DNA from: Escherichia phage slur02
Sequence record: NC_028927.1
Reading direction: 5' to 3' (one strand)
Length of the DNA: 64,000 nucleotides
Shown here piece after piece: positions 953 through 37,678 of this stretch. The translations under genes and the position numbers were made by a program. Within the stretch, counting starts at the first letter, position 1; the number at the start of each line of letters is the position of its first letter. Under the pieces are notes generated by a model that did not search any database, was not told where the DNA came from, and worked only from the letters and a program-made list of their open reading frames with translations.

Positions 953-3649
953 TCAGCCAAACAGGAAGTCTAACGAAGCTTTTTCTTCATAGTCCATACC
1001 AGCCGATTCACACATGCCCGCAAGCGGTTTAACAAACGATTTTTGGAACAAAGTTGAGTAGTCAATCCAAGACAGTACGTCAGAACGAATTTCTTTTGGA
1101 AGTTCTGTTCCCGACGGCCAAGCAATGCACTTGTCACCAAATGGATTTCCTTCACGCAATGGAAGAACCATTACCTTATTTCCATCCAAAATTGGAGCTA
1201 CACCTAAACCGCTAACAGCTCGACGATAAGTTAGCACACCACGAATATGGAACGGACATTTAAATCCTGGCCAACCTTTATCATCATATTTCGCTATATC
1301 GTTCGCAGTTTTTACTTCAGCAATAACTTTATAGTCAAGCTGACGATATTCTTTCTCGAAGTTTTTGTAATATTCTTGGACAGACTCTTCACCTTCCTGA
1401 AGAATACGACGAATACTTTCTTCGAGAGCTTCTTGCACTGCTTTTGGTGTTGAACTCTGCTGAGTTTCCATACCCATGATTTTTAGATGTGGTTCAGCAA
1501 ATCGCTTATCTTCCATATCATAAACGTTCAGAGCATAACGCTTTTTCGCTTTCCAAAATCCGCCAACGCCCTTTGAACCAAGTGGAGGGCAAGAAATAGC
1601 TTCACGGTCCATATGCATCAGATGCTCGCGGTTATTCATATAATCACATAACTCACGATATGCAACATCAATCATAGGTTCCATCTTTTTCTTACCGAAC
1701 TGATTCATGAATTCAACTAAATCATTTTGTTCTTTAAAGCGGTCAAGACCAACTTTTTCAATAACTTTATCTACGCAAACATATACCGAATCAGTATCAC
1801 CTGCCGCGATGAAATCTTCACCATTAGTTCCGCATACTTTATTCAGATATTCATTAATTTTACGAGCAATCCACTGAATACCAACTTGGCCGAAAATTGT
1901 GATAGCAGTAGCATTTCGCAAATCATAGTAACGGAAATGAATATTACCAAGAGCACCATAAAGACTGTTAATGAGAATTTTACGGTTCAGCTGATTTGTG
2001 TTAGCAAGTGTAGCTGCTTTTTCACATTCTTCAATCAGACTATTGAGAACAGATTCAGTATAATTCGATAGTTCATTTAAGAAATCATCACTGAACTTAA
2101 CATATCGTTCAACTTCTGGTTTAGTTGAACAGGACCCTGCGCCTTTCATAATAATCTTTTTAATAGCTTCGGCATTCATTTCTTCAGCGAACATTTTCTT
2201 TTTCCAATCTTTACGCTGGAAAAATACTTTAGCGATTTCCTTTGGAATGATACCTTCTTGATGCTTGTCATACATCCATCCATTCGGAGAACAAGAATAT
2301 TCATCACTCGGTTTAGGAGCTGTTCCTGCGATATATTCATGAATTGGATGAACTTTAAACTGCCCACGAATAGTCTCAGGACTAATGTTAACCTGACGAA
2401 TAATGCTCGGATACAGAGACGTCAAGTCAAAACTCATAATATATCGACGAGCAATTGGTTTAGGTTCAAACACAAATGCACCCGGAAAACTCTGTTTAAC
2501 GTGCGAACCTTGTTGAGGAATAACCTTATGTTCACTTTTCAGTGAGTTAAAAATAATAGCATCCCAAGTTTTAATAGGACTCATTACACCAGAAAAAGGC
2601 ATTTTAGCATAATAAGACATACTTAAAACTAGATCGATAAACCCACGAATTTTATCAATCGCTTGAACTGATTCTACGTCAATGATGTTATAACTAATGT
2701 ATCGTTGATGATTAGTCTCACGAAGTTTATTAATAGGACCGTCGTATGGTAATTTACCTTTTTTGGTTTCATGTTGAGCAACTGATTCCAAAGAGAATGA
2801 CGGCAAATTAGTAAATGCGAATTTCTTATACAAATCTAAATAATCAAGAATAGATACGCCATCAATAGAATAAATTTCTTTGCTGCCGTACATATTTTGA
2901 ATTAGTTTAGATTTTACTCGACCGATTGGAGAGAAGCGTTTCATACTGCGTTCACCGAGAATCATTTTAACACGATTCATAATATACGGAACGTCAAATC
3001 CCTCAATATTCCAACCAGTAAAAATAGCAGGTCGTTTCTGTTCCCAGAGATTGATATATTCCATGAGCATATCACGCTCATTATCGAATGGCATATAAAT
3101 TACTCGGTCAAGAATTTCTTGAGGAACTTCATCACCACCTTCACAGTCAAGCTTAGCAGCTAACTTTGCATCCCATTTTGATACTGAACCGTACATTGAA
3201 TTCAAAAGGTCGAAAACATAAAAACGATCATCAATTGAATCATAATGAGTGATAGCATCAATTTCATATTCTGCTTTCATTGGGTCAGGAAATTTATCGC
3301 CAGTAACCTCAATGTCACAGTTAGCTACACGAACAAATTTTCGGTCATAAACAATTTCTGAACCGTATGTATCACTGATATAAGCGAGTTTAAAATCGTT
3401 CATACCGAGAGCTTCGAGACCGATGTCTTCCATTCGTTTCATCCAATCTCGAGCATCTTTCATTGATGGAAATTTTTGAGGAGCGCAGTTTTTACCATAG
3501 ATGTCTTTGTACTTTGACTCTTCCTTACAATGCCTAAACATAGTTGGAAGATATTCTACTTCACGAGTACGTTCCTTTCCGTTTTCATCAATATAACGTT
3601 CAACAATGTTATTTCCGACTGTTTCGATAGAGATATAAAATTCTTTCAT
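953..3649 (-). CDS. 43: DNA polymerase (family B), gp43
   Basis: 898-aa ORF, near-identical to T4 gp43 as recalled (MKEFYISIETVGNNIVERY...); exonuclease and polymerase motifs. Confidence 0.97.
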   Translation of the reverse strand: MKEFYISIETVGNNIVERYIDENGKERTREVEYLPTMFRHCKEESKYKDIYGKNCAPQKFPSMKDARDWMKRMEDIGLEALGMNDFKLAYISDTYGSEIVYDRKFVRVANCDIEVTGDKFPDPMKAEYEIDAITHYDSIDDRFYVFDLLNSMYGSVSKWDAKLAAKLDCEGGDEVPQEILDRVIYMPFDNERDMLMEYINLWEQKRPAIFTGWNIEGFDVPYIMNRVKMILGERSMKRFSPIGRVKSKLIQNMYGSKEIYSIDGVSILDYLDLYKKFAFTNLPSFSLESVAQHETKKGKLPYDGPINKLRETNHQRYISYNIIDVESVQAIDKIRGFIDLVLSMSYYAKMPFSGVMSPIKTWDAIIFNSLKSEHKVIPQQGSHVKQSFPGAFVFEPKPIARRYIMSFDLTSLYPSIIRQVNISPETIRGQFKVHPIHEYIAGTAPKPSDEYSCSPNGWMYDKHQEGIIPKEIAKVFFQRKDWKKKMFAEEMNAEAIKKIIMKGAGSCSTKPEVERYVKFSDDFLNELSNYTESVLNSLIEECEKAATLANTNQLNRKILINSLYGALGNIHFRYYDLRNATAITIFGQVGIQWIARKINEYLNKVCGTNGEDFIAAGDTDSVYVCVDKVIEKVGLDRFKEQNDLVEFMNQFGKKKMEPMIDVAYRELCDYMNNREHLMHMDREAISCPPLGSKGVGGFWKAKKRYALNVYDMEDKRFAEPHLKIMGMETQQSSTPKAVQEALEESIRRILQEGEESVQEYYKNFEKEYRQLDYKVIAEVKTANDIAKYDDKGWPGFKCPFHIRGVLTYRRAVSGLGVAPILDGNKVMVLPLREGNPFGDKCIAWPSGTELPKEIRSDVLSWIDYSTLFQKSFVKPLAGMCESAGMDYEEKASLDFLFG

Positions 3650-3707
3650 AGATATTCCTTAGTTTATAGCCCGAGTTATTAGGCTCTTGATATATTATAC
3701 TCCAAAT

Positions 3708-3725
3708 AAGGGGCCGAAGCCCCTT
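3708..3725 (-). other. UUCG-tetraloop RNA hairpin between regA and gene 43
   Basis: minus strand AAGGGGC-UUCG-GCCCCUU; weak U-tract. Confidence 0.55.
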
Positions 3726-3727
3726 GC

Positions 3728-4096
3728 TTAATTACCAATCGTATATTTAGGAACGAGTTTCCATTCATGTTTTTGTTTAAAAGAAATAACTCGGAAGTTA
3801 TTAGTTAAATCTTTCATAAAAGTTCTTTGACCAGGAACGATTTCAATCAGTCCCCAATCTTCTAATAGCCATGCAATCGAATCACGACGAACTTCATCTT
3901 CTTCTGTCATTTCAACTTGACGACCATCCATACGAAGCATTTCTTTAAAATGAACGATATAGTATAGTCCTTTTTTCTGAAGAATATGACAGGACTGATA
4001 CAGAACTTTATCTTTATTATTAGCAATTCCCATACGAGTCAAAGTTTCTTTTACTTTCAGAAAATCTTCAGGTTTTTTAAGAGTAATTTCAATCAT
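3728..4096 (-). CDS. regA: translational repressor RegA
   Basis: 122 aa; T4 regA size and position between 62 and 43. Confidence 0.88.
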   Translation of the reverse strand: MIEITLKKPEDFLKVKETLTRMGIANNKDKVLYQSCHILQKKGLYYIVHFKEMLRMDGRQVEMTEEDEVRRDSIAWLLEDWGLIEIVPGQRTFMKDLTNNFRVISFKQKHEWKLVPKYTIGN

Positions 4097-4662: not shown

Positions 4663-5622
4663 TCACTTCCACTGCATTTCACATGCTAATTGAATGAAAA
4701 GATAAGCTAAATGTAATTCAGTGTTAGCTGCAATACCATGATACTGATTATTTTCACCAACAATTTCGTACATACGAATAATACTTTGTGGAGTTACACG
4801 TGAATAGATTTCTTCGGCAAGTTTACCCACGAACCACGAATAATCAGCTGCATATTTTGGTGCTAAAGCTCTGAGTTGTTTAACATCTTTATTTTTGAGA
4901 GACTCAAGAACATCATCAATAGCACCACGATCGTTAGTAACCAGTGATAAAATACCAGCATCCAAAACACCTTTAGATGAATAACTATCGAGCTCGCCAA
5001 TAGTTTTACGAAAATCAGGAAAATTCTTTTTAACCAAAGCTGCTACAACTTTCATATCAGCTATAGCAATTCCTTCATGCTTGCAGATTTCAGTCAATCG
5101 ACGAATCATCTGCTTCATCATTTCAATTTTATCTTCATCGGTCGGTTGACCGAATGTAATAACTCGGCAGCGTGACTGAAGCGGTTTAATAATACCATCA
5201 ATATTGTTAGCAGTAATAATAATACTACAGTTTGAACTATAAGCTTCCATAAAGGAACGAAGATGTCGCTGAGACTCTGCTAACCCTGAGCGGTCAAATT
5301 CATCAATAACGATTACTTTTTGACGACCATCAAATGAAGCTGCACTGGCAAAATTAGTCAAAGGACCACGAACGAAATCAATTTTACAATCTGACCCATT
5401 CACAAACATCATATCAGCATTTACATCATGACACAATGCTTTCGCTACAGTTGTTTTACCTGTTCCTGGAGAAGGAGAATGAAGAATAATATGTGGAATC
5501 TTACCTTTACTTGTAATAGATTTAAAGGTTTCTTTATCAAAGGCGGGAAGAATACATTCATCGATAGTAGATGGACGATATTTCTGTTCAAGAATGTGTT
5601 CTTTTTCATTTACGGTAATCAT
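4663..5622 (-). CDS. 44: clamp-loader ATPase gp44
   Basis: 319 aa from MITVNEKEH with GAGGA RBS; Walker A SPGTGKTT; T4 synteny. Confidence 0.93.
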
Positions 5623-5656
5623 AATTTCCTCATTCAAGTTTTAGTGTAAATTATAA

Positions 5657-5670
5657 AGGGCCGAAGCCCT
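5657..5670 (-). other. UUCG-tetraloop RNA hairpin between genes 45 and 44
   Basis: minus strand GGGC-UUCG-GCCC. Confidence 0.55.
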
Positions 5671-5673
5671 CTA

Positions 5674-6360
5674 TTAAAAATCGTGGGTAGAATCAGCTTC
5701 AAGAGCTACTACATAATTCGCGTGTTCACCTTCAAATTTAGCAGCACCTTGTTTACCTTTTGCCCAGAGCAGAAGTTTATAATTTCCTGGTTGCATTTTC
5801 ATATTTGCCATATTGATAATGAAATTAAATGTATTTTCACCATCATAATCACCAAGAGTCAAAGAATATTTAACACGAGTCAAAGCAGAATCTTCTACTT
5901 TATTAAAACCGTTAATTACGATTTTACCTTCTTTTACTGTGATAGCAATTGTATCAATCTGCAGACCACGAGATACACGCAACAGCTGTTGAAGGTCTTC
6001 AGCTTTAATTTCAGTAACAACAGATGCTACCGGGAATGGAATTGGTTTATTAGGAGCAACTACTGTACTCGGATCGGCTGCTGGCCAAAAAATTGTTGAA
6101 CGGGCATCAGCAATTTTAATATTACCATCTTCTGACTGGGAAATTTCTGCATCGTCATTAACTAGAGACAGAATACCGAGAAAACCGTTCAAATCGTAAA
6201 TTGCTACATCAAAATCAATAGTGTCAGAAATATTTGCTTCTGCATAAGTTGTACCATTAACTGCGCGAGTCATAATAAATTGACCGGATTTAAGCATAAT
6301 ACCAGAGTTAATAGTAGCGAAATTTTTAAGCAGAGCAGTAGTATCTTTAGACAGTTTCAT
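5674..6360 (-). CDS. 45: sliding clamp gp45
   Basis: 228 aa; T4 gp45 size and position. Confidence 0.93.
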   Translation of the reverse strand: MKLSKDTTALLKNFATINSGIMLKSGQFIMTRAVNGTTYAEANISDTIDFDVAIYDLNGFLGILSLVNDDAEISQSEDGNIKIADARSTIFWPAADPSTVVAPNKPIPFPVASVVTEIKAEDLQQLLRVSRGLQIDTIAITVKEGKIVINGFNKVEDSALTRVKYSLTLGDYDGENTFNFIINMANMKMQPGNYKLLLWAKGKQGAAKFEGEHANYVVALEADSTHDF

Positions 6361-19972: not shown

Positions 19973-20215
19973 TTATTCCTTAATTCCTAGTACTTGTTTA
20001 AAAGTCTCGTCGTAATCAAGACTTTGGCCCGTTTGTTCTTTATGTTTGTATATAATATCACTTACTTCTGATAGCATATTTTTATATGAACGAGTTAAAG
20101 CAGATTTAAGCACACTGTATCTATCAGGAAATTTACCATGTTCATTATAATAAGCTATTGCTAATTCACGGACTGCCTTTTCAGCAGCCTCCATATATTC
20201 TTTACGCTTGGTCAT
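19973..20215 (-). CDS. hypothetical protein (nrdC.1 position)
   Basis: ORF 19973-20374, likely starting at internal Met (MTKRKEY...). Confidence 0.4.
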
Positions 20216-20519
20216 TTTCTTCTCGGTCAAATCGGTGTTTACAATGGCGGCATTTATAACGAAGATTACTAGTCTGCCAATGGACCAATTGCACCTGTTC
20301 AGTTCCACATTCAGGGCAATTAGGAACGTTTTTAGAAGCCCTTTCGCGACGTTTAACCATAGCCATAATGGCATCCCATGCTGGAGGTTTAAAATCTAAA
20401 TCGTCACAACCATGAATCTTTCCACGCATTTCCATATCATCTTCCTCACCAGCCATAATAATTTTAATTAAACTGGAATTACTTGAAGCTGCAATGTCTT
20501 CTAATAGACGCTTTTTCAT
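20202..20519 (-). CDS. zinc-ribbon protein
   Basis: 105 aa; C-terminal CPECG...CRHCKH four-Cys ribbon. Confidence 0.5.
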
Positions 20520-21445
20520 TTCAATACCTCAATAGCATTACGTAAACCATTTGCTTTTGCATTAAGAGCTTTTAACAATTTGGTGTGTTCTGCAATTTGG
20601 GCTTCAACTTCAATCAAACGAGCATTGAGATATTCGCGTTCTTCACTCAGATTATCAACCTTTTCTACTTTAGGCTCTTTTACAACTGTCTTATATGTAT
20701 TAGGGTTCTTCAGTTTAATTAGAATGCGTGAACTGTATAACATTGAACCATTATCTTCGGTTTCGTCATACATTTCTACTACATCCATAATTTTTAACAT
20801 CATGCGGAGTTTATAAGACAACGAACGAATAGTTTTGTTGTGCTTATTAATTTCTTTAGCTGTCATGGTGCCGAGATTACGTGAGTAATAATAAGGAACC
20901 TGGATATTAATTAATACTGATGAACCACCTGGCTTGTGTGTTACTTCATCAGCAATAACCCAATCCTTAACATGAACTGTATTTGTACGGTCATCGCCCG
21001 CGGTAAATAGTTTGCGAGCATGCTTAAAAAGCATATTCACTTGGTCATTGAATTGACAAGCAAATTTATCAGCAAATTTAGTTTCAGGAATGGTAGATAA
21101 CCAATCAGCCAAATGGGTCTTTTTAACATCGTTAACAATAGTAAATTCAACCAAATCAGTTATAGATGTCTCAGATTTAATAAAGCTCGGCTTCATAAAG
21201 TTTTTAATGTTATCGCGAGCTACAGTAGAAGATAACATACGAGAACGTTTAAACCATTGAAGCAAATTGCCCAACGAATGAGAATAAGCGTTTTGAGTAT
21301 CTTTACAGATATGATTTTCCTGGCCAACATATTGAAGGAAATCACGAAGAATATTATTGATTACTGCTCTGTGTCCGATCTGATAATTACGGTGTTTAGT
21401 AATAAGACTGTCAAAATAATCAATATAATGTTTACGAGTTTTCAT
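20516..21445 (-). CDS. hypothetical protein with C-terminal coiled coil (paralog family member 1)
   Basis: 309 aa; N-terminus MKTRKHYIDY; C-terminal heptad-rich segment. Confidence 0.55.
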   Translation of the reverse strand: MKTRKHYIDYFDSLITKHRNYQIGHRAVINNILRDFLQYVGQENHICKDTQNAYSHSLGNLLQWFKRSRMLSSTVARDNIKNFMKPSFIKSETSITDLVEFTIVNDVKKTHLADWLSTIPETKFADKFACQFNDQVNMLFKHARKLFTAGDDRTNTVHVKDWVIADEVTHKPGGSSVLINIQVPYYYSRNLGTMTAKEINKHNKTIRSLSYKLRMMLKIMDVVEMYDETEDNGSMLYSSRILIKLKNPNTYKTVVKEPKVEKVDNLSEEREYLNARLIEVEAQIAEHTKLLKALNAKANGLRNAIEVLK

Positions 21446-21497
21446 ATTCTTCTCACTTGGTTAATGATTTATACTCCGAGCCATCCTTGGCTTTAAA

Positions 21498-22499
21498 TTA
21501 CTTAATTAACTGTAAAGCTTGTTCAAGACGATCAAGACGATTAACGGATTCTTCCCAAATCTTTTTAGCCTGCTCATATTCTTTCTGCGCTTTATTAGAA
21601 ATTTCTAGAACTTCTTTATAAGCTTTTTCTAGTGCAATAACTTCTGGACGAATTTCTACCGGTTCAGGAGAATCATCAAGATTATCCATTAGTTCCTCAA
21701 GGGTAGTTTCTTCTTTAGGAGTATTCACAATTTCATCACATTTTTGTTGGTAAATTTCTTTATCAGTCGGTGAGTACGCACACTTTACTTCACGAAGACT
21801 AACTACAATTTTATATCCTTCCCAACCGCATATATTCTTAAAAGGATATGTATGAATATTTTCTACTGTTTCCATACAAAGTAATGCGGTCTCTAATTGA
21901 CGAGTTATAGTGCTAGCAATTGAGAAAAATTTATTAATGTTCTTTTGGTTAGTTTCTGGTGTAAAAAATCCATAATTCACAAAAATAGCTACTTTATTTT
22001 TATCAAGTTCATATTCTTTTATGATAATCATATCAGAAGCCAAAGGATGAATTTGACGATAATCACCATAACATAATTTAGAAGCTGATTTTAGAATTTG
22101 CTTCTTAAAAAGTCTGAAATTACTAATCCAACGACGAGTAAAAATATTCTCAGGGTCTTCTTTATTATTAAGATGATAAGAATTAACATCACCGAACCAA
22201 TTATATCCTACTACATCTTTGGTTCGTTTAATTTCTTTCCCAAAATTACCAAGAATATCCCGATTAACCAAATATGAAAGAAGACGAGACTCTTTAAAGG
22301 TTTTCTTGATAACATCTTTATCTACACGGCTAGAAATTTTACGAATTTCATGAATAAATTTAGTAGAAGAAACAATACTTGCATCAACACTATTGAGCCA
22401 TTGATTGATAATAGAAAGAACGATATTTTGACCAAACATCGGTATAGCTTTATCATCAATAACGCTATTGAATGATTTGATATATTCGTTACGAGTCAT
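21498..22499 (-). CDS. hypothetical protein with C-terminal coiled coil (paralog family member 2)
   Basis: ORF 21498-22529; start moved to ATG 22497-22499 (MTRNEYIKSF, GAGGAG RBS) because the track start lies inside the promoter -10. Confidence 0.55.
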   Translation of the reverse strand: MTRNEYIKSFNSVIDDKAIPMFGQNIVLSIINQWLNSVDASIVSSTKFIHEIRKISSRVDKDVIKKTFKESRLLSYLVNRDILGNFGKEIKRTKDVVGYNWFGDVNSYHLNNKEDPENIFTRRWISNFRLFKKQILKSASKLCYGDYRQIHPLASDMIIIKEYELDKNKVAIFVNYGFFTPETNQKNINKFFSIASTITRQLETALLCMETVENIHTYPFKNICGWEGYKIVVSLREVKCAYSPTDKEIYQQKCDEIVNTPKEETTLEELMDNLDDSPEPVEIRPEVIALEKAYKEVLEISNKAQKEYEQAKKIWEESVNRLDRLEQALQLIK

Positions 22500-22524
22500 A
22501 TTAATCTCCTCATTAGAAAGTAAG

Positions 22525-22560
22525 AACATTATACCACATCTTTGTGGCGAAGTAAACTAG
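22525..22560 (-). promoter_or_regulatory. T4-type early promoter
   Basis: GTTTAC (22552-22557), 18 bp spacer, TGGTATAATG. Confidence 0.6.
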
Positions 22561-23582
22561 TTTAGTGCATTTAGTGCATTGTTCAGTTTAGAACGTTGCT
22601 TTGTCAGATTTTGAACCCTTGACTGAGCTTGTTCTAACACCTTTTCAGCTTCTAGCACTTCATTGGTCGCTTTAACGAGTTCATCATCTACTGCCTTAAG
22701 AGACTTCTCAATCGCGTCAGCGTGCCATTTTTCTACAGGTTTAAGACTCGGATTTTCAACAGGAAGAAAATTCACTTTATTGAATTTCCATGCATCATTA
22801 TTACCTGAACTATACATCCAAAATTTAGAATCGTTTGATGAGTAATTGGATAAATTTAAATTTAAGTTATCTTGCACTTCTTGCTTTTTCTCTTGCGGGA
22901 CTTCGTCCTTTCTCAAAAAATCGTATTTAAATGAAACGATCATATCAAGTTCATATGTTGTCGTATCTAACTTAAATCGTTCAAAACGAGGTAAAATCTT
23001 AGATTGAACAGCAGCAACAACATCCATATACTTAAATGCTTCTGTCAACTGTGATTTAAGGCATTCACAAATTGAAAGAGAATTTTTTGTATTAGGTTTA
23101 AAGCTAATTCGTGCAGTTCTATTATTTTCTTTTAACGGTCTTACTTCCATCTGAAGAGTATAACCATCAAATTTCAGATTCTTTAAGTTAATATCAGAAC
23201 CTTTTAATCGACTAGCCGTAGACAAAATTTGCTTTAATTGTTTACGGAATAGAGCAATAAATCTCCATTCAAGACGATAATGATTTGGATTAAAAAATCC
23301 TGTTGATAAATCAACCTTACTCTGACCAACGCCTTGAACAAATAGAGGATTTTTATAATCAATAGTTTTACAGAAATCGGTGAGCTGCTCACGAGCAGTC
23401 ATTTGTGTAATATATCCCGCTTTACTAAAATGACGTAACCATTCACTGCTATTCATATATTTAAAGTGAATGGAACTATTAACTCTATCAGGGTCTAAAT
23501 TATTTTGGCACAAAAATGTCATAACATTACGGGTATAGCTAGCATTACGAACCATATCTTCAATTTGAGAACGAGTTTTCAT
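22557..23582 (-). CDS. hypothetical protein with C-terminal coiled coil (paralog family member 3)
   Basis: 341 aa; N-terminus MKTRSQIEDM; C-terminal coiled coil. Confidence 0.55.
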   Translation of the reverse strand: MKTRSQIEDMVRNASYTRNVMTFLCQNNLDPDRVNSSIHFKYMNSSEWLRHFSKAGYITQMTAREQLTDFCKTIDYKNPLFVQGVGQSKVDLSTGFFNPNHYRLEWRFIALFRKQLKQILSTASRLKGSDINLKNLKFDGYTLQMEVRPLKENNRTARISFKPNTKNSLSICECLKSQLTEAFKYMDVVAAVQSKILPRFERFKLDTTTYELDMIVSFKYDFLRKDEVPQEKKQEVQDNLNLNLSNYSSNDSKFWMYSSGNNDAWKFNKVNFLPVENPSLKPVEKWHADAIEKSLKAVDDELVKATNEVLEAEKVLEQAQSRVQNLTKQRSKLNNALNALN

Positions 23583-23590
23583 GGTGTTCC

Positions 23591-24499
23591 TTAAGATTTA
23601 AGTAAATCAACAATTTTAATTAATTTTTCACGCTCAGATTTAGCTTTACTACTCAGTCCAGATAGTCTGAAAATTTCATCGTCATATTGTTGAATAGAAA
23701 TATTCAGCTCTTCAATCTGCTTATTAAAATAATCAATTTGTTCAGAATGTTTTTCGTTACTACGAACTGGTACAGGTTTTGTAGGCAATTTAGTTGAACT
23801 GGATTCATCCGGGCGATAAATTAAAATACAACTTGAACCAATAGGGCATTTAGCACCAGATGAATATTCTAATGTTCCGGCTTCTTTTAAAACTTCAAAA
23901 GCTAAACAGAGATGATGCCCCATATTAACATAATCTGTAGAGTGAGCTCTGATATAATAATCATCGCCGCGAATACTAAATTTAAAGCATTTAAGGTCTT
24001 CTGTATTATTGGTCTTAAAAATCATTTGTTTATCTAGACCTTTAGCTAATCGAGCGCCTAATGCTAATAATCGTCGTTGATTTTCCCACAAATCCGTAAT
24101 CATTTGATCGAATGATAATTTAGGCATTAGTCGACCATAAAGGTCATATCCTTTATTATAATTGCGAAGGATTTCACTCGCATTAATACGAGACAACGCT
24201 CCAATTTTATTAAGGGCTTTCATGATGCGATCAGATAAACTCATTCCAGACCCGTTTGTTCGCTGTAAATGTTTATCTAATCCAAACCCAATATCAACTT
24301 TAAACTTATCTAAAATTTCTGCATGAACATCTCTGTCAATAACATTCAAATCCAAAGTTGGGTTAAATCTATGAAAAAATTTATCTGGCTCTCCACGACG
24401 AAGTACAGTCCATTCATTCAATTTTTTATTAACTAAAGATTTAATTACTGCATTGACATTATTAATTACTACTGACATATTTTCCTCACTCAATTTCAA
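23591..24499 (-). CDS. hypothetical protein with C-terminal coiled coil (paralog family member 4)
   Basis: 302 aa; C-terminal coiled coil. Confidence 0.5.
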   Translation of the reverse strand: MKLSEENMSVVINNVNAVIKSLVNKKLNEWTVLRRGEPDKFFHRFNPTLDLNVIDRDVHAEILDKFKVDIGFGLDKHLQRTNGSGMSLSDRIMKALNKIGALSRINASEILRNYNKGYDLYGRLMPKLSFDQMITDLWENQRRLLALGARLAKGLDKQMIFKTNNTEDLKCFKFSIRGDDYYIRAHSTDYVNMGHHLCLAFEVLKEAGTLEYSSGAKCPIGSSCILIYRPDESSSTKLPTKPVPVRSNEKHSEQIDYFNKQIEELNISIQQYDDEIFRLSGLSSKAKSEREKLIKIVDLLKS

Positions 24500-24893
24500 T
24501 TTTACTAAATACGCAGAATATGATGGAAAAGACTATATAAGCACCGCATACAGATTGAACTAATACCATTCCAAAGAACCAAACAATATTATCAAACAAT
24601 GTCTGTTTTACGTCGAAAGGACGTAAACTTACAGTAATATTATCGCCTTTTTCTATTGATGAATACATCTCTGGGGAAATATATTCACTAAATCTATAAC
24701 CGTCTTTGAGTTCATATACGGCAATAAACGATAAACTAGACCCCTTTCCTTGAGTTCCTGTAAGGGTATTAACTACAGTAACATCATAATCTTTATAATG
24801 CATATAATCATTAATTGCGTAATAACCATATGCAATTACTATACATAAACAACATATCAATAAATTCAATCTTTTAATTATCAACTGTTTCAT
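24486..24893 (-). CDS. membrane protein (two TM segments)
   Basis: 135 aa; N- and C-terminal hydrophobic helices; MotA-type promoter upstream. Confidence 0.5.
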   Translation of the reverse strand: MKQLIIKRLNLLICCLCIVIAYGYYAINDYMHYKDYDVTVVNTLTGTQGKGSSLSFIAVYELKDGYRFSEYISPEMYSSIEKGDNITVSLRPFDVKQTLFDNIVWFFGMVLVQSVCGAYIVFSIIFCVFSKIEIE

Positions 24894-24920
24894 AATAATC
24901 TCAATTAAAAGGGCTTAGAA

Positions 24921-24950
24921 CCATTATACCATCCTTGGTATAAAGCGGTT
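24921..24950 (-). promoter_or_regulatory. MotA-dependent middle promoter (putative)
   Basis: MotA-box-like CCGCTTTA, 12 bp spacer, TATAAT preceded by TGG. Confidence 0.45.
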
Positions 24951-25476
24951 ATGCGAGTACCGTCTTTAACCGTTCTTCAAACTTCCGAAGAGTATTCTGG
25001 CGTTCAGCTCTTTGCTTTTTGTAAGTTTCAATACGCTCTGAAATGAGAGTGTATCGTTCATTTACTGATTCTTTCATAAAATCAGGAATTTCACGAGAAG
25101 CTTTAATCTCGTCAAATTTATCAATAACAGCTTGCTCTTCAGCAATTAAGTTATCATACATCAAAATATCTTTCTTGATGAACTCAATATCTTCTTGAGT
25201 TACACGAGATAATTTAGATGCTTTATCCTTTTTGTACTGTTCGTTAGTATCACGAGACCAGTGTAATGTACGATTTTTATTCGTATTTTTGTAAATTTCT
25301 ACAATACCAATCTCATCAATAATAACGATCCAATTCCAACGAGATTTGTAAATTTGCCCTCCATCAACTGTGATTTCACCTCCGATTGAGATGTCATTAA
25401 AGAACTTGCTTTGTGCTTCTGATTTAAATTTACCATCATTGTAATTTACCAGGTTGAAAATATCTTTAGCGTTCAT
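24949..25476 (-). CDS. hypothetical protein
   Basis: 175 aa; GGAGG RBS; early promoter directly upstream. Confidence 0.55.
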   Translation of the reverse strand: MNAKDIFNLVNYNDGKFKSEAQSKFFNDISIGGEITVDGGQIYKSRWNWIVIIDEIGIVEIYKNTNKNRTLHWSRDTNEQYKKDKASKLSRVTQEDIEFIKKDILMYDNLIAEEQAVIDKFDEIKASREIPDFMKESVNERYTLISERIETYKKQRAERQNTLRKFEERLKTVLA

Positions 25477-25940: not shown

Positions 25941-26909
25941 TTATTTCAGAAGAGTAACCTCAGCAATTTCTTCCCAACCGTTTTTGTCGGTCATAATAAA
26001 GTCAGCAAGATAAAGAGCAGTACGCAGTGAAACATTGCGTAAACGATTAACATTGACTTTCATCCATGATAATGCTTTATAAGTTTCTTCATCAGAAAGA
26101 CCGCGCTTTTGCATCATGTCGGTTGAAAGAATAACATCTTCAACCCTGACCATAATTTCTTCATTAGTGTGAACACCCAAATCCAAATAAACTGAGCGGG
26201 ACACTAATGCTTGTAAATGTGGAGCAAGTTTAGTACCACGGTCTAATTCGCGGTCAATGTCAACGTTTGTGATAAAAACAATCGTTCCTTTAAATTCAAA
26301 CTCACGCTCAATGCCTTTTTCTTCTAAGTAAGAAGATGCAGTGCTCCAGCAGACTTTACGGGTCTCTCCAGTGTCCAGAGCAGCTTTCAGAAGATTAAGA
26401 ATGTCCATATCAGAGAAAACATCCACATCATCAATCAAAAGGACAGAATTCTCTTCACGATTATTCCAAAGCTGTTCATAAAGACCGATACCGGAGATTT
26501 TACCGTTAATGCTTTTATATTCAATGTATCCAATATCATTTGCTTTATTTAAAGCTTTATCTAAAGAATACGTTTTACCAATACCTGCCGCACCAGAGAT
26601 AATTAATGAACGAATGTTTCCGTTAATAATACCATTCGTCATCATTCCCATAACATTAAATCTTTTATTAATGCGGGTTTTCATATCTTCATACGATTCT
26701 TTAACTTCTTCAACTTTTACACCATCATATGAAATGTCTGATTTGTAAACCCAAACACCGCGACGTTTACCGTCAATTTCAACAAAAACTTTACCATCTC
26801 CTTGCGCATCTACCGGAGCATTATCTGGGAACCATTCGCCTAAGAGCTCAAAAGTTCCAGAGATTTCTTTACCGAAGTAGATACCCTTATTGATAGTTAC
26901 AGTTTTCAT
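25941..26909 (-). CDS. P-loop NTPase (AAA-like ATPase)
   Basis: ORF 25941-27053; true start ATG 26907-26909 (MKTVTINKG, GGAG RBS) downstream of promoter and terminator; Walker A GAAGIGKT, Walker B LLIDDVD. Confidence 0.6.
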   Translation of the reverse strand: MKTVTINKGIYFGKEISGTFELLGEWFPDNAPVDAQGDGKVFVEIDGKRRGVWVYKSDISYDGVKVEEVKESYEDMKTRINKRFNVMGMMTNGIINGNIRSLIISGAAGIGKTYSLDKALNKANDIGYIEYKSINGKISGIGLYEQLWNNREENSVLLIDDVDVFSDMDILNLLKAALDTGETRKVCWSTASSYLEEKGIEREFEFKGTIVFITNVDIDRELDRGTKLAPHLQALVSRSVYLDLGVHTNEEIMVRVEDVILSTDMMQKRGLSDEETYKALSWMKVNVNRLRNVSLRTALYLADFIMTDKNGWEEIAEVTLLK

Positions 26910-26939
26910 TTTATTCTCCAAATCCGTATCAGTTGATAG

Positions 26940-26980
26940 TTGTATAGTACCATAAAGCTTTATGCTTGTAAACAACTTTG
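26940..26980 (-). promoter_or_regulatory. T4-type early promoter with conserved leader
   Basis: GTTTAC (26968-26973), GGTACTATACAACTATCAACTGATAC, leader near-identical to the 800-845 copy. Confidence 0.6.
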
Positions 26981-26995
26981 TGAAAAATTTTTGAA

Positions 26996-27022
26996 ATAAA
27001 AAAAGGGAGCCCGAAGGCTCCC
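26996..27022 (-). terminator. rho-independent terminator after the nucleotidyltransferase gene
   Basis: minus strand GGGAGCC-UUCG-GGCUCCC then UUUUUUU. Confidence 0.65.
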
Positions 27023-27024
27023 TA

Positions 27025-28038
27025 TCATTTATAATAACTTCGGTGGTTTTCAAGATAAACCTGTTCGAGGAAATTATTCCAAAAGCTCATATCTACTGTT
27101 TTAGGCATACCATTCTTAGAAGCTTCAGTAGATGCTGCTTCTACTTGATCGACCACATCTTCCAAAAACTCTTGAACCGTTTTAAATGGATGTTTACCCA
27201 ACTTCACGTCGAGAATAAATGGAGCGTCTTGAAGTGGATAAACCAAGTCACCAGTTTTGTAAATTTCCAATAGTTGAAGTCCACCACGACAAGCATGGCT
27301 CAGAGCTTTCCAGTCAATGCCTTCATTGGCTTCGGCCTTTCGAGCGCGTTCACCATATTCAGCATCTAATTTGTTCAGTGACTGCTTAAGCTCAATAAGA
27401 GAAAGCGTTGTCTGATATTTACGACCCAACACTGTGTAAAACGTCTGTGGGCCTGTTTTCTCATGATTATGGAACACCCATTCACAGAATTCGTTTTCTG
27501 GAAGACGATGCTTAATATCTTCAACTTTAGTACGACGCTGCTTAATGGAACCGTCTTCTTGGTAATCAACCCATTGCTCAGGGATTTGATTAACTACTTT
27601 CAATACATCACGTAATGCAGCCAAACGAGAACCCTTGACACCGTATTTAGAAGCTTGCTTGCGGACATATCCTAAATAGGATTTCATGTTAGTCGTATAA
27701 AAACGAGAACGGTTGTCTTGAATAAACTTCCACACATCAGGCAAATCTGATTTAACTACTAGCTCAGGTGGAGTGTGAAGCATATCCAATGCTACGGTTT
27801 CACCATCTGCTGCTAATTTAAAGAAATATTTAAGACTGTATAGTTCATGGTCAATATCATCTTTAGTGTTTTTAGATGATGTATTGTTAGTATTTTTACT
27901 CATATGCTCTTTAACATTTCCGATAAGAATATCGCGAGCAGGAGGAACAAAGATTTCTTTAAAATCTACATCAGATTCTGGGGTAGAAGTTCCATAAAGA
28001 TGACTACCAAAATAGCTTTTCATTACTGTTTTCATCAT
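27025..28038 (-). CDS. predicted nucleotidyltransferase (Pol-beta-like fold)
   Basis: 337 aa; N-terminal GSHLYGTSTPESDVD matches the hG[GS]...D.D NTase signature. Confidence 0.5.
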   Translation of the reverse strand: MMKTVMKSYFGSHLYGTSTPESDVDFKEIFVPPARDILIGNVKEHMSKNTNNTSSKNTKDDIDHELYSLKYFFKLAADGETVALDMLHTPPELVVKSDLPDVWKFIQDNRSRFYTTNMKSYLGYVRKQASKYGVKGSRLAALRDVLKVVNQIPEQWVDYQEDGSIKQRRTKVEDIKHRLPENEFCEWVFHNHEKTGPQTFYTVLGRKYQTTLSLIELKQSLNKLDAEYGERARKAEANEGIDWKALSHACRGGLQLLEIYKTGDLVYPLQDAPFILDVKLGKHPFKTVQEFLEDVVDQVEAASTEASKNGMPKTVDMSFWNNFLEQVYLENHRSYYK

Positions 28039-35322: not shown

Positions 35323-35500
35323 CTAAACGAATAGGTTCATGAATGCCATATCCCTGAACAGAAATTTCTGTAGTAGGATAAATTCCATCAATATCACCCA
35401 TATTCCAGGCTTCGTTAAATTGCTGTTCGCCTGAATTACTAAACCACTCGGCGAAAGCATTTAGCACATCTTTAGAACCTTCAATAATTATCTTTGCCAT
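35279..35500 (-). CDS. hypothetical protein (vs.5 position)
   Basis: 73-aa ORF. Confidence 0.45.
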   Translation of the reverse strand: MAKIIIEGSKDVLNAFAEWFSNSGEQQFNEAWNMGDIDGIYPTTEISVQGYGIHEPIRLVEYDLCTGEEVKYD

Positions 35501-35862
35501 TATAAGCTCTCAGTAAAGGTACGAGCAATAACGTCGCGCTGCTGTTCCGGAGTCAGAGAGTTAAAGCGAACTGCATAACCGGATACACGGATGGTCAGCT
35601 GCGGATATTTTTCCGGATGCTTAACTGCATCTTCCAGAGTTTCACGACGCAGAACGTTAACGTTCAGGTGTTGACCACCTTCAATTTTAACTGTAGGCTG
35701 TGGCTCAATTTCAATTTCACGAGCATGCAAACCGTAGAAAATTTCTGGGTCTACAAAAGAGTCCTCTTTAAAGGTTTTAGAGACAATAATTCGTGCTTGA
35801 ATACCATCTTCAAAATAAATAGTACCTTTATGTGTGCCTTCAAGAATTTGATATGCTTTCAT
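35500..35862 (-). CDS. GrcA/YfiD-like glycyl-radical spare-part protein
   Basis: 120 aa; C-terminal [25 protein letters not shown] resembles the glycyl-radical motif of E. coli GrcA. Confidence 0.65.
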
Positions 35863-35869
35863 ATAAACC

Positions 35870-36196
35870 TCAATTAGAAAATAAATTTATCCAAGATTGT
35901 TCTTTAATTAAAAATGGCTCAGAATCATATGCCATTAAACTTTGGGTGATTAGTCCTTTAAAAGGTCCATCAATAAATTCCATGGTAAAATATGGAATTT
36001 TATTCATTAACTGTGCGTTAGGAGCAGTGCACAAAACTCTGCATCCTTTGAATACACCTTTTTGTAATTTGTATTGCTTGGGATAAAATTCGCTTAAAAT
36101 GTTGTTATTTGCCAAAATTTCAAAATGATTTACCAATTTATTTTTAATAGTTTTTGGCGAAAAATAGAGATATTCGAAAAGCTGTGTGTCTGTCAT
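35870..36196 (-). CDS. hypothetical protein (vs.7 position)
   Basis: ORF 35870-36250, start likely internal Met. Confidence 0.45.
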
Positions 36197-36735
36197 TATT
36201 GCATTCCGATTACGAAAAACTGTGGACGAGTAATACCACCAATGCAACATTTACTATTACAGCAGTAGTGTACAGTGTCAATATGGACGCTATAAATCTT
36301 ATCCATATCAGGAGATTTGACAGGCTCATCAATTATATACAAAATTCGCGAAAGCGATAAACCTCTGAACTTGCTTCCTTTATTACCAATAAAACTGCGT
36401 ACAGAATCAGTAAATAAACGAAAACGTATATCATCATTAGAATAACGCGAAAATTCCTTTTTAATGTTATTTGCAGAAATTTTAGCGTAAGCTGAAGTAT
36501 TAGAAAGAACAATAACTGTTCCGCCATCATACAGCCAATTAGCAGCAAAGTTAGTCACAGCAATTGATTTACCAGATTGACGTCCACCATCTATACGAAG
36601 TGTGCAGTACTGTTTAAGTAATTCTTCAAATGGCGGGATATATTCGTTTTTACAAATTTCTTCTACTCTAGCATCAGAATGGTGTGTAAAAGCATTCATC
36701 AGGGATAGATACGGGCCAGTTAAAAATGTTCTCAT
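36196..36735 (-). CDS. hypothetical protein (vs.8 position)
   Basis: ORF 36196-36792, start likely ATG 36733-36735. Confidence 0.45.
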   Translation of the reverse strand: MRTFLTGPYLSLMNAFTHHSDARVEEICKNEYIPPFEELLKQYCTLRIDGGRQSGKSIAVTNFAANWLYDGGTVIVLSNTSAYAKISANNIKKEFSRYSNDDIRFRLFTDSVRSFIGNKGSKFRGLSLSRILYIIDEPVKSPDMDKIYSVHIDTVHYCCNSKCCIGGITRPQFFVIGMQ

Positions 36736-36870
36736 ATTTTCTCTCTTAATTTTTGGGCCATTCCATGGCACATGAGTTGTCCATTCCTGCATTACCCATT
36801 ACCGCGCTTTGGCTCGACCTTATCACAGGTTGGCGGGAATACCTCAAATGAGGTCCAGGCTGTTCCCATA

Positions 36871-37344
36871 TTATTTGAACGATTTAACGTACTGAATAGA
36901 ACCTTTACTATTTACAAAGGCAATTTTACCATTTTTATTATACATGGTAGCAGTACGTTGATAACCATAAGTTTGTTTACCAGATTGATAACCAACTAAT
37001 GCGAAATTATCTTCGCCCATTTTATTCTGTTTAGCGCGAATGCGTTCATGACCATGTGCCATAAGAACCTTAGCATCACCGGTTGCAATGGATCGACGAG
37101 TTTTTTCATCTTCAACTGTATTAACAAAGTCGTCAAATGAATCAAATTTAGCATGAGATTTATTATACAGTTTTCCATCTACTGCATAATTATATCCCTG
37201 TACATCCATCTCAACTTCTGTACCATCATCCAATACAGCAGTGATTTTTTGACCTTTTTTAAATTTCAAAAGATCAGTAAAAGATTCAGCAATAATTTGA
37301 GAATTAATAGCTGCTTCAGTGATAAATTCTTGATATGTTTTCAT
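36871..37344 (-). CDS. internal-protein-like packaged protein with capsid-targeting N-terminus
   Basis: 157 aa; N-terminus MKTYQEFITEAA matches the CTS recalled for T4 internal proteins (MKTYQEFIAE); AGGAA RBS. Confidence 0.55.
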   Translation of the reverse strand: MKTYQEFITEAAINSQIIAESFTDLLKFKKGQKITAVLDDGTEVEMDVQGYNYAVDGKLYNKSHAKFDSFDDFVNTVEDEKTRRSIATGDAKVLMAHGHERIRAKQNKMGEDNFALVGYQSGKQTYGYQRTATMYNKNGKIAFVNSKGSIQYVKSFK

Positions 37345-37360
37345 ATGATTCCTTTAATTT

Positions 37361-37678
37361 TTATTCTTTAGGAAAATTTTTAGAATATGCGTCGTAAAGC
37401 TTATTTCCAATACGACGAAAAACTCTAGCTGCAAAACGATTTTCTGGGTTTTTAATCATAATTTGCATCATATAAGTACCCGCGTCTGAAAGAGCTTCTT
37501 CATAGTACCCGTTAATTTCTTTAAGAGTCCTACGTTTACCACCAGGACCATCAACAGTGATTTTCCATTTACCTGTAGAAGTGCGACTCGGCGGCTCAAC
37601 TTGTTCAATCCAAATATAACCGCCTTCTACACGTTGTCCTGCAGCAGATTCTGCAATAAATTCTTGATATGTTTTCAT
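37361..37678 (-). CDS. internal-protein-like packaged protein with capsid-targeting N-terminus
   Basis: 105 aa; N-terminus MKTYQEFIAESA; basic; directly downstream of denV. Confidence 0.55.
   Translation of the reverse strand: MKTYQEFIAESAAGQRVEGGYIWIEQVEPPSRTSTGKWKITVDGPGGKRRTLKEINGYYEEALSDAGTYMMQIMIKNPENRFAARVFRRIGNKLYDAYSKNFPKE

Follow-up and report, generated by a model that had tools for sequence, protein, structure and literature searches.

Four consecutive open reading frames (ORFs), here called A to D, lie between positions 20516 and 24499 of the window, by which we mean the whole 64,000-nucleotide (nt) stretch of the genome of Escherichia phage slur02 (NC_028927.1) that was analysed. 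All four are on the minus strand and are present at the coordinates given in an earlier note on this DNA, and they are orthologs of the T4 proteins NrdC.3, NrdC.4, NrdC.5 and NrdC.6 respectively (Table 1). The earlier note had proposed that they are tandem divergent paralogs, that each consists of a globular body followed by a heptad-rich C-terminal segment, and that they belong to the kind of early phage family that acts in host take-over or against host defence. This proposal is examined here by sequence and profile comparison, structure prediction, comparison of related phage loci, and the published work on T4.

Over bases 20000-25000 the window matches Escherichia phage slur04 at 100% identity, and its identity to hundreds of Tequatrovirus genomes is 96-99%. 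ORF B is 98% identical to T4 NrdC.4, ORF C is 94% identical to T4 NrdC.5 over 341/340 amino acids (aa) and is placed between the nrdC.4 and nrdC.6 orthologs, as it is in T4, and ORF D is 97% identical to T4 NrdC.6 over 259 aa. ORF A has 60% identity to T4 NrdC.3 and 79-88% identity to the Mosigvirus protein at the equivalent position.

Table 1. Coordinates in the window of the four genes, their C-terminal helical segments and the early promoter upstream of ORF B. The a/d column gives the number of hydrophobic residues at heptad positions a and d, and the number of shuffled sequences that equalled it.
Feature	Positions	Strand	Extent or sequence	Assignment	a/d	Evidence and remarks
ORF A	20516..21445	-	309 aa	NrdC.3 ortholog, mosaic allele		phrog_1435, E 1e-116
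C-terminal heptad helix of A	20519..20659	-	residues 263-309		12/14; 0/2000	best-conserved region of the family
ORF B	21498..22499	-	333 aa	NrdC.4 ortholog, hub of the paralog family		phrog_1435, E 6e-169
C-terminal helix of B	21501..21647	-	residues 285-333		12/14; 0/2000	AlphaFold helix 285-332
T4-type early promoter upstream of ORF B	22528..22556	-	GTTTAC-N14-GTGGTATAAT			promoter scan; 10/12 matches, extended TG
ORF C	22557..23582	-	341 aa	NrdC.5 ortholog		Pfam PF23882 (DUF7235), E 6.9e-120
C-terminal heptad segment of C	22560..22727	-	residues 286-341		13/14; 0/2000	
ORF D	23591..24478	-	295 aa from the most likely start, ATG 24478	NrdC.6 ortholog		phrog_2257, E 4e-153
C-terminal helix of D	23594..23755	-	residues 242-295, kink at SGLSS		12/14; 0/2000	AlphaFold helices

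Pairwise BLASTP among the four proteins detects A and B as relatives, with 25% identity over 226 aa and an expectation value (E) of 2e-7; for B and C it finds two short pieces with E 0.014. In PHROGs, A and B share one family, phrog_1435, and C and D have one each, phrog_2351 and phrog_2257 respectively. The Pfam accessions are also three in number, namely PF26897 (Phage_T4_Y04OP), PF23882 (DUF7235) and PF26899 (Phage_T4_Y05B), of which PF26897 is the precomputed assignment for B-type homologs and PF26899 that for D-type homologs. Family alignments were made from database homologs together with ten related phage loci, and were compared profile against profile using hhalign. A and B match with a probability of 98% and E 4e-14. 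The match between B and C has a probability of 84-91% and E 1e-6 to 8e-6, and is colinear across 237 columns, and that between B and D has a probability of 28-33% and E about 5e-4, and is colinear across the first ~150 residues. The remaining pairs (A-C, A-D and C-D) are weak, at a probability of 1.5-10% and E 0.003 to 0.033. When an alignment of A, B and C together was compared separately with the alignment of D, hhalign gave E 7e-4 over the same segments. Colinear aligned segments include ...SRLLSYLVNRDILGNFGK / ...IGALSRINASEILRNYNK and ILKSASKLCYGD / LLALGARLAKGLD.

Coiled coils can yield spurious similarity, and the comparison was therefore rerun with the last 60 residues removed, against null profiles that had been reversed or column-shuffled. 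The scores obtained were 102.9 for A-B, 45.2 for B-C (E 1e-5), 33.7 for B-D and 23.6 for C-D, as against about 14 ± 2.5 for the null profiles, with a maximum of 23.5. For the two critical pairs, the B-C score of 45 compares with nulls of 14 ± 2.7 (maximum 21.5), and the B-D score of 33.7 with nulls of 14.4 ± 2.3. These scores make NrdC.4 the hub that joins all four proteins through their globular parts. We conclude that the four proteins are very probably paralogs, as had been proposed: the relationship is supported by BLASTP for A-B, by profiles for B-C, and for B-D weakly by profiles and more by fold.

The similar N-termini described in the earlier note (MKTRKHYIDY, MTRNEYIKSF and MKTRSQIEDM) were found in three of the ORFs, and D differs, starting with MSVVINN. 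Alignment of 21 A-, B- and C-family sequences shows three invariant residues, T2, R3 and F86, and near-invariant positions that are mostly hydrophobic, with a few R, K and E. A motif around ILKSASKLCYGD, made by hand and post hoc, occurs at the equivalent positions 139, 135 and 137 of A, B and D and has no other match in the window; it misses C and many orthologs and is illustrative only. At the DNA level the only repeats among the four genes are matches of 14-27 nt, one of which is the ATGAAAACTCGT start common to A and C. DNA-level similarity has thus gone, from which it follows that the duplications are old, and comparison of the four genes shows no sign, within this window, of gene conversion or of a recent duplication. 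An exhaustive hidden Markov model search of 1.84 billion representative proteins with the A+B+C profile gave 18 matches, all of which were A-, B- or C-type proteins or fragments of them; it returned no D-type protein, and nothing from outside the T4-like phages. HMMER alone therefore fails to link D to the other three.

The AlphaFold model of B has a mean predicted local distance difference test (pLDDT) score of 82.8 and a predicted template modelling (pTM) score of 0.68. It consists of a body (residues 1-258), a low-confidence linker (259-284) and a single helix (285-332). In the body, six helices (3-84) come first. Three short strands follow, then a pair of helices (119-142), a hairpin (158-174) and a long helix (185-208), after which the chain forms another hairpin (212-235) and a last helix (246-258). 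In the model of D (pLDDT 77.9), residues 1-225 form the body, residues 226-241 the linker, and residues 242-271 and 277-294 two C-terminal helices. The body is helical as far as residue 106 and continues with a pair of helices (123-144), a hairpin (165-178), one more helix (186-199) and strands (204-221). The order of secondary structure elements is identical in the two models.

Foldseek comparison of the B model with BFVD found NrdC.3 of fPS-65 with E 9e-9, and NrdC.6 of JS10 with E 1.8e-5, at a probability of 1.0 and over a full-length alignment. The B model also matches proteins of 300-370 residues from T4-like phages of Acinetobacter, Pectobacterium, Enterobacter, Erwinia, Serratia and Klebsiella. 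Five of these BFVD relatives of B, which are proteins of IME523, PM2, fHyAci03, Acj9 and Acj61, are also matched by the D model, with E 2.5e-7 to 6e-5. In the BFVD match lists of the two models, NrdC.5 and DUF7235 do not appear as entry names. The earlier note had set four unrelated folds against paralogy; the models of B and D are concordant, A is linked to them by fold through the BFVD NrdC.3 entry matched by the B model, and C is joined by profiles.

The heptad-rich C-terminus was borne out for all four proteins by a heptad test, and its separation from a globular body was seen in the AlphaFold models of B and D. In the last 49 residues of each protein there is one unbroken heptad register, in which 12-13 of the 14 a/d positions are hydrophobic, a count that was equalled by none of 2000 shuffled sequences. 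The presence of a helix in C is suggested by this periodicity together with the hhalign alignment to B. All four proteins end with L-x-x-[A/I]-[I/L/V]-x-x-[L/I]-[K/N], either at the C-terminus or one residue before it, and proteins from other genera end similarly. In multiple alignments the helix is the best-conserved segment of every family (0.68-0.89, vs 0.49-0.82 for other regions); in B, for example, its conservation is 0.78, vs 0.62-0.70 for the rest of the protein. The helix of C has 36-38% identity to its Gaprivervirus and Mosigvirus counterparts, vs 20-29% elsewhere in the protein, and the helix of D has 61-70% identity to those of other genera (70% for Gaprivervirus), vs 27-50% for the body. 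The sequences at the surface positions of the helix are family-specific. Purifying selection on the helix and on several internal motifs is clear, and the conservation of the helix points to a specific role. A coiled coil would be consistent with the heptad periodicity, which does not prove it, and either oligomerization through a coiled coil or the binding of a shared partner by the helix is plausible. The helix seems to be a transferable module, since the last 53 residues of a metagenomic protein of 173 aa (P0237) match the NrdC.5 helix at 89% identity, and its first ~120 residues have no BLAST match to any protein in the family set.

Copy number was compared across T4-like genomes, as the earlier note had advised, and is three or four in Tevenvirinae, in which the array is syntenic. 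Tequatrovirus has four copies in the order D-C-B-A. Three copies are found in Gaprivervirus, Dhakavirus and one metagenomic contig, in the order D-(small ORF)-C-B, and also in Mosigvirus, where the order is D-C-A. Across the loci compared the gene order is constant, and the array is always located between nrdC.8 and nrdC.2. Full-length orthologs are kept in hundreds of genomes from at least four genera, with their order conserved, and as judged from the searches the family is confined to T4-like phages. The Acinetobacter phage Acj61, which belongs to a different subfamily, has two adjacent fold relatives, p120 and p121, with two small ORFs between them and nrdC; the C-terminus of one is clearly heptad-patterned, and that of the other weakly so (p about 0.07). 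Acj61 also encodes a nicotinamide phosphoribosyltransferase and a ribose-phosphate pyrophosphokinase, which form a salvage pair for nicotinamide adenine dinucleotide (NAD+); together with p120 and p121 they occupy 1229-3938 and 35452-37472 of its locus. Such NAD+ salvage pairs have been described as phage counter-measures to NAD+ depletion.

Several alleles in the array have unusual structures. ORF A is a mosaic, in that its identity to T4 is 82% at the N-terminus, 47% in the middle and 77% in the C-terminal helix. Its middle domain is 82% identical to that of Mosigvirus SA79RD, and the neighbouring genes are 94-98% identical to T4, which suggests that the middle domain of NrdC.3 has been exchanged between genera. 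NrdC.3 alleles fall into classes of at least 95%, about 77% and about 60% identity. In Shigella phage SP18 (locus 5038-5942) the gene at the NrdC.5 position is split into ORFs of 170 and 125 aa and is probably a pseudogene. One in-frame natural fusion (P0120) joins NrdC.5 (from ~145) to NrdC.3 (from ~137) at a short FN..VN microhomology, with NrdC.4 deleted, and NrdC.6 of Shigella phage Sf25 (P0122) has an internal tandem duplication of ~83 residues. The T4 reference sequence NC_000866 has a 1-nt deletion (GAGCTG-ATATT vs GAGCTGAATATT), at T4-locus positions 6067-6180, corresponding to ~23690-23700 of the window, which frameshifts nrdC.6 right at the start of the C-terminal helix. The NrdC.6 protein of the reference is consequently 275 aa long and has no helix, and is followed by a 70-nt gap before nrdC.5; the DNA downstream is otherwise near-identical. 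The frameshift could be either a real mutation of the laboratory strain or a sequencing error. Our reading of the mosaic, split, fused, duplicated and frameshifted alleles is that they may be signatures of an arms race at a dynamic locus.

Translation of ORF B starts at ATG 22499, as had been noted, with a GAGGAG Shine-Dalgarno sequence 6 nt before it; the alternative ATG that would give a longer protein, at 22529, falls within the early promoter. ORF D had been assigned a TTG start at 24499, which is not borne out. Its start is most likely ATG 24478, which has GAGGAA 3 nt upstream and is the same methionine as that used in the Shfl2 and T4 annotations; the Shine-Dalgarno sequence overlaps the end of nrdC.7. 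The earlier note had also assigned two of the genes their own early promoters. One canonical promoter was found, upstream of ORF B, and it fits the T4 early consensus, which the SA79RD annotation quotes as GTTTAC(N14)gtggTAttaT. The second is not evident, ORF A having only a late-like TATAAATc upstream, and ORF C starting 8 nt past the stop codon of ORF D. Promoter-like sites are not enriched in the region, with 23 seen vs 27 ± 4.7 expected from shuffles. A sigma-70-like site (TTGAGA-16-GATAAT) at 24877-24904 lies just upstream of nrdC.7 and may drive nrdC.7, nrdC.6 and nrdC.5 as a unit.

Experimental evidence on function comes from T4. An evolved T4 clone with compensatory deletions was unable to infect the strain ECOR17 (Srikant, Guegler & Laub, 2022, eLife 11:e79549, PMC9391042). 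Deletion of dsr1 from ECOR17 restored infection by this clone, and dsr1 on a plasmid protected MG1655 from it (PMC9391042). When T4 nrdC.5 was supplied in trans, the deletion mutant was again able to infect and form plaques on MG1655 carrying ECOR17 dsr1. The same paper terms nrdC.5 an early gene; a search of its text did not show how far the T4 evo 3 deletion reaches with respect to nrdC.3, nrdC.4 and nrdC.6. Dsr1 is a SIR2-domain NADase. According to a 2026 preprint, its TPR sensor shares homology with the sensor of Avs7 and has a phage major capsid protein as its trigger. Judging by its similarity to the T4 protein, ORF C is very probably an anti-Dsr1 factor. For ORFs A, B and D the prospects of an anti-defence function appear evenly balanced, and the literature on NrdC.3, NrdC.4 and NrdC.6 consists of incidental mentions, with queries by accession or locus tag giving irrelevant papers. 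The idea of an anti-defence family, put forward in the earlier note, is thus backed by published experiment for T4 nrdC.5, and is something that we infer for A, B and D. As to host take-over or toxicity, nothing was found that speaks either way.

Searches of Pfam, NCBIfam and PADLOC for an enzymatic signature in the four proteins gave no credible match, none passing a curated cut-off or reaching an E lower than about 1e-3. The PADLOC and NCBIfam matches, to BrxC and BrxF segments, to the N-terminal region of XerD and to SEC10/PgrA, were all sub-threshold, with scores well short of the cut-offs, and fell in helical regions. The sub-threshold Pfam matches of ORF A were to a PHL domain (20.7 bits vs a cut-off of 23.7) and to Phage_int_SAM_1 (13.8 vs 22.3). 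PDB sequence searches with the family profiles found nothing for the A1 profile and one match, at E 0.41, for the A2 profile.

Our proposed explanation is that NrdC.3 to NrdC.6 would constitute one ancient, phage-specific family, which T4-like phages carry next to nrdC in a syntenic tandem array and whose members act as early anti-defence binders. As a whole we consider this rather probable. The common design would be a body of ~230-260 residues, composed of an N-terminal helical bundle and then a helix-hairpin-helix-hairpin alpha/beta unit, followed by a disordered linker of 15-50 residues and an amphipathic heptad helix of ~48 residues. The products would be non-essential early accessory proteins, which inhibit bacterial immune proteins stoichiometrically rather than enzymatically. 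Early expression is suggested by the canonical early promoter before B and by the description of nrdC.5 as an early gene (PMC9391042). NrdC.5 neutralizes the SIR2 NADase Dsr1, as shown for T4, and by analogy with the pair DSAD1/DSR2 the early-made protein may already occupy Dsr1, or lock it, by the time that the late trigger is made. NrdC.3, NrdC.4 and NrdC.6 would neutralize other defence proteins, or variants of the sensor. Within each protein the fast-evolving, recombining body would recognize the target, and the conserved helix would either raise avidity by self-association or dock onto a conserved surface. The proposal can be extended to a modular counter-defence toolkit, in which each body recognizes a different member of the TPR-sensor group (relatives of Dsr1/Avs7, or other pattern-recognition defence proteins) and the helix is a mobile docking or oligomerization module. 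This extension is speculative and we regard it as unlikely. If it is true, then the inhibitor repertoire of T4-like phages mirrors the paralogous sensor repertoire of bacteria, and the three uncharacterized genes point to their cognate defences.

Several observations weigh against this explanation. C-D and A-D have no significant direct similarity, so that the family holds together by transitivity through B. The template modelling scores (TM-scores) between the models of family members are 0.4-0.5, with large root mean square deviations; these modest scores may be due to the free orientation of the C-terminal helix and the flexible linker. The membership of ORF C rests on profile comparison. 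An anti-defence role has been shown experimentally for NrdC.5 only among the four, and the T4 protein that was assayed is not the same as ORF C, with which it shares 94% identity. The direct binding of NrdC.5 to Dsr1 is proposed by analogy, and the result that Dsr1 is triggered by capsid protein was obtained in the preprint with a Drexlerviridae phage, not with T4.

The four proteins might alternatively be subunits of one hetero-oligomeric complex, in which the helices are bundled to give a single multi-headed machine. This would suit the likeness of the four helices in length, heptad register and terminal motif, the status of the helix as the most conserved part of each family, and the fact that the genes are always adjacent and co-oriented, with C and D tightly coupled. 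We think it improbable, however, given that the copy number varies (four, three, or two in Acj61), that either A or B can be absent, and that the reference T4 NrdC.6 has no helix. The anti-Dsr1 phenotype was moreover restored by nrdC.5 alone in trans (PMC9391042; the paralogs remaining in the mutant are not stated in the available part of that text), and the family-specific surfaces of the helices fit homotypic association or distinct partners at least equally well. It is about as improbable that the paralogs other than NrdC.5 have a non-immune early function, such as host take-over or modulation of a host enzyme, or are decaying duplicates. The incidental character of the literature on NrdC.3, NrdC.4 and NrdC.6 is in keeping with this, as is the natural occurrence of frameshifted, split and fused copies. 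Against this alternative stand the retention of full-length orthologs in order across at least four genera, and the clear purifying selection on the helix and several internal motifs; and homology to a demonstrated anti-defence protein, combined with mosaic alleles, would be the usual signature of counter-defence.

A further possibility comes from the structural matches. The match list is headed by many tail-terminator and tail-completion proteins, aligned over ~100 residues, and BFVD lists a tail terminator for the B model at a probability of 0.97. The proteins could on this basis be decoys, mimicking a phage structural protein with a tail-terminator-like alpha/beta domain and so soaking up those defence sensors of the host which recognize virion proteins, and DSR2 is reported to sense a tail tube protein and Dsr1 a major capsid protein. 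The list headed by the tail proteins also has nitroreductases, the dimerization domains of RNA polymerase alpha/Rpo11 and de novo designed alpha/beta proteins. The likeness to tail terminators may therefore reflect a generic two-layer alpha/beta sandwich, and be a weak lead rather than homology. The reported trigger of Dsr1 is in addition the capsid protein and not a tail terminator, and searches of Pfam, PHROGs and the PDB found no sequence similarity to tail terminators. Of the alternatives considered, decoys seem to us the most doubtful, and we continue to prefer early anti-defence binders descended from a common ancestor.

The array is flanked on one side by nrdD, endonuclease VII, pin, nrdC, nrdC.1 and nrdC.2, and on the other by nrdC.7, nrdC.8, nrdC.9 and nrdC.10. 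The plus strand of the region has short ORFs only, with nothing notable, and the region has no Rfam match at the gathering threshold. NrdC.8 (24949-25476, 175 aa), which has a charged helical C-terminus, was considered as a fifth member of the family and rejected, as its hhalign scores of 17-19 with each of the four families are at the null level and its heptad pattern is weak (p about 0.02). For nrdC.7 (24486-24893 of the window) the T4 annotation predicts a membrane protein. nrdC.10 (25941-27053) is an ORF of 370 aa containing a P-loop/AAA-type nucleoside triphosphatase region, with weak Pfam matches to AAA_14, AAA_22 and nSTAND3 and weak PHROG matches to clamp-loader families. Its true start is probably further in, as the listed TTG start is 48 codons upstream of the onset of the PHROG match.

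Much of this locus is already known: annotation of these genes in T4 goes back decades, and NrdC.5 has a published anti-defence role. The new element is a modest one, namely the joining of three groups into one superfamily and the extension of the fold to other Straboviridae. Counter-defence genes of T4 are still being found singly, and NrdC.5 is the only one of the four with a known role. If NrdC.3, NrdC.4 and NrdC.6 are its remote paralogs, they become three specific and testable anti-defence candidates, with a hypothesis at the domain level (variable body vs conserved C-terminal helix). It would then be possible to read the array beside nrdC, and with it the pairs found in Acinetobacter phages, as an old, diversifying counter-defence locus. 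A widespread mis-annotation is also corrected. GenBank orthologs of NrdC.3 to NrdC.6 are widely labelled 'thioredoxin', a label that appears to have been carried over from the locus name nrdC.x; a thioredoxin or glutaredoxin identity was rejected, since the four ORFs match no such Pfam or NCBIfam model and none of the sequences has a CxxC.

The functional analogue used here for NrdC.5 is DSAD1, a phage protein which counteracts the defence-associated sirtuin DSR2. We take DSAD1 to act by binding directly to DSR2. It differs from NrdC.5 in its target, which for NrdC.5 is Dsr1, and PDB sequence searches found no relationship between its sequence and the NrdC family. Comparable genes would be tifA, dmd, adfA/61.2, ipI and ipIII of T4. 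These are accessory anti-defence genes, non-essential and removed by compensatory deletions, which the phage requires only if the host has the matching defence. tifA, dmd and adfA/61.2 are clustered close together in T4 (PMC9391042), and that paper describes none of the five as belonging to a multi-copy paralog array with a common C-terminal helix.

Comparison with T4 NrdC.5 itself, and with the family databases, places the ORFs as follows. ORF C matches PF23882 over its full length at 400.5 bits, vs a cut-off of 30, and has the same length and genomic position as NrdC.5. ORFs A, B and D do not match PF23882 and are filed elsewhere: PF26897/phrog_1435 takes A and B, and PF26899/phrog_2257 takes D, both being families of unknown function, with E 1e-116 to 1e-169 in PHROGs. 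They share the architecture of NrdC.5 and, through B, very probably its ancestry. Among the Pfam and PHROGs matches obtained here, NrdC.3/4, NrdC.5 and NrdC.6 stand under separate accessions, and the evidence from profiles and fold presented here joins them.

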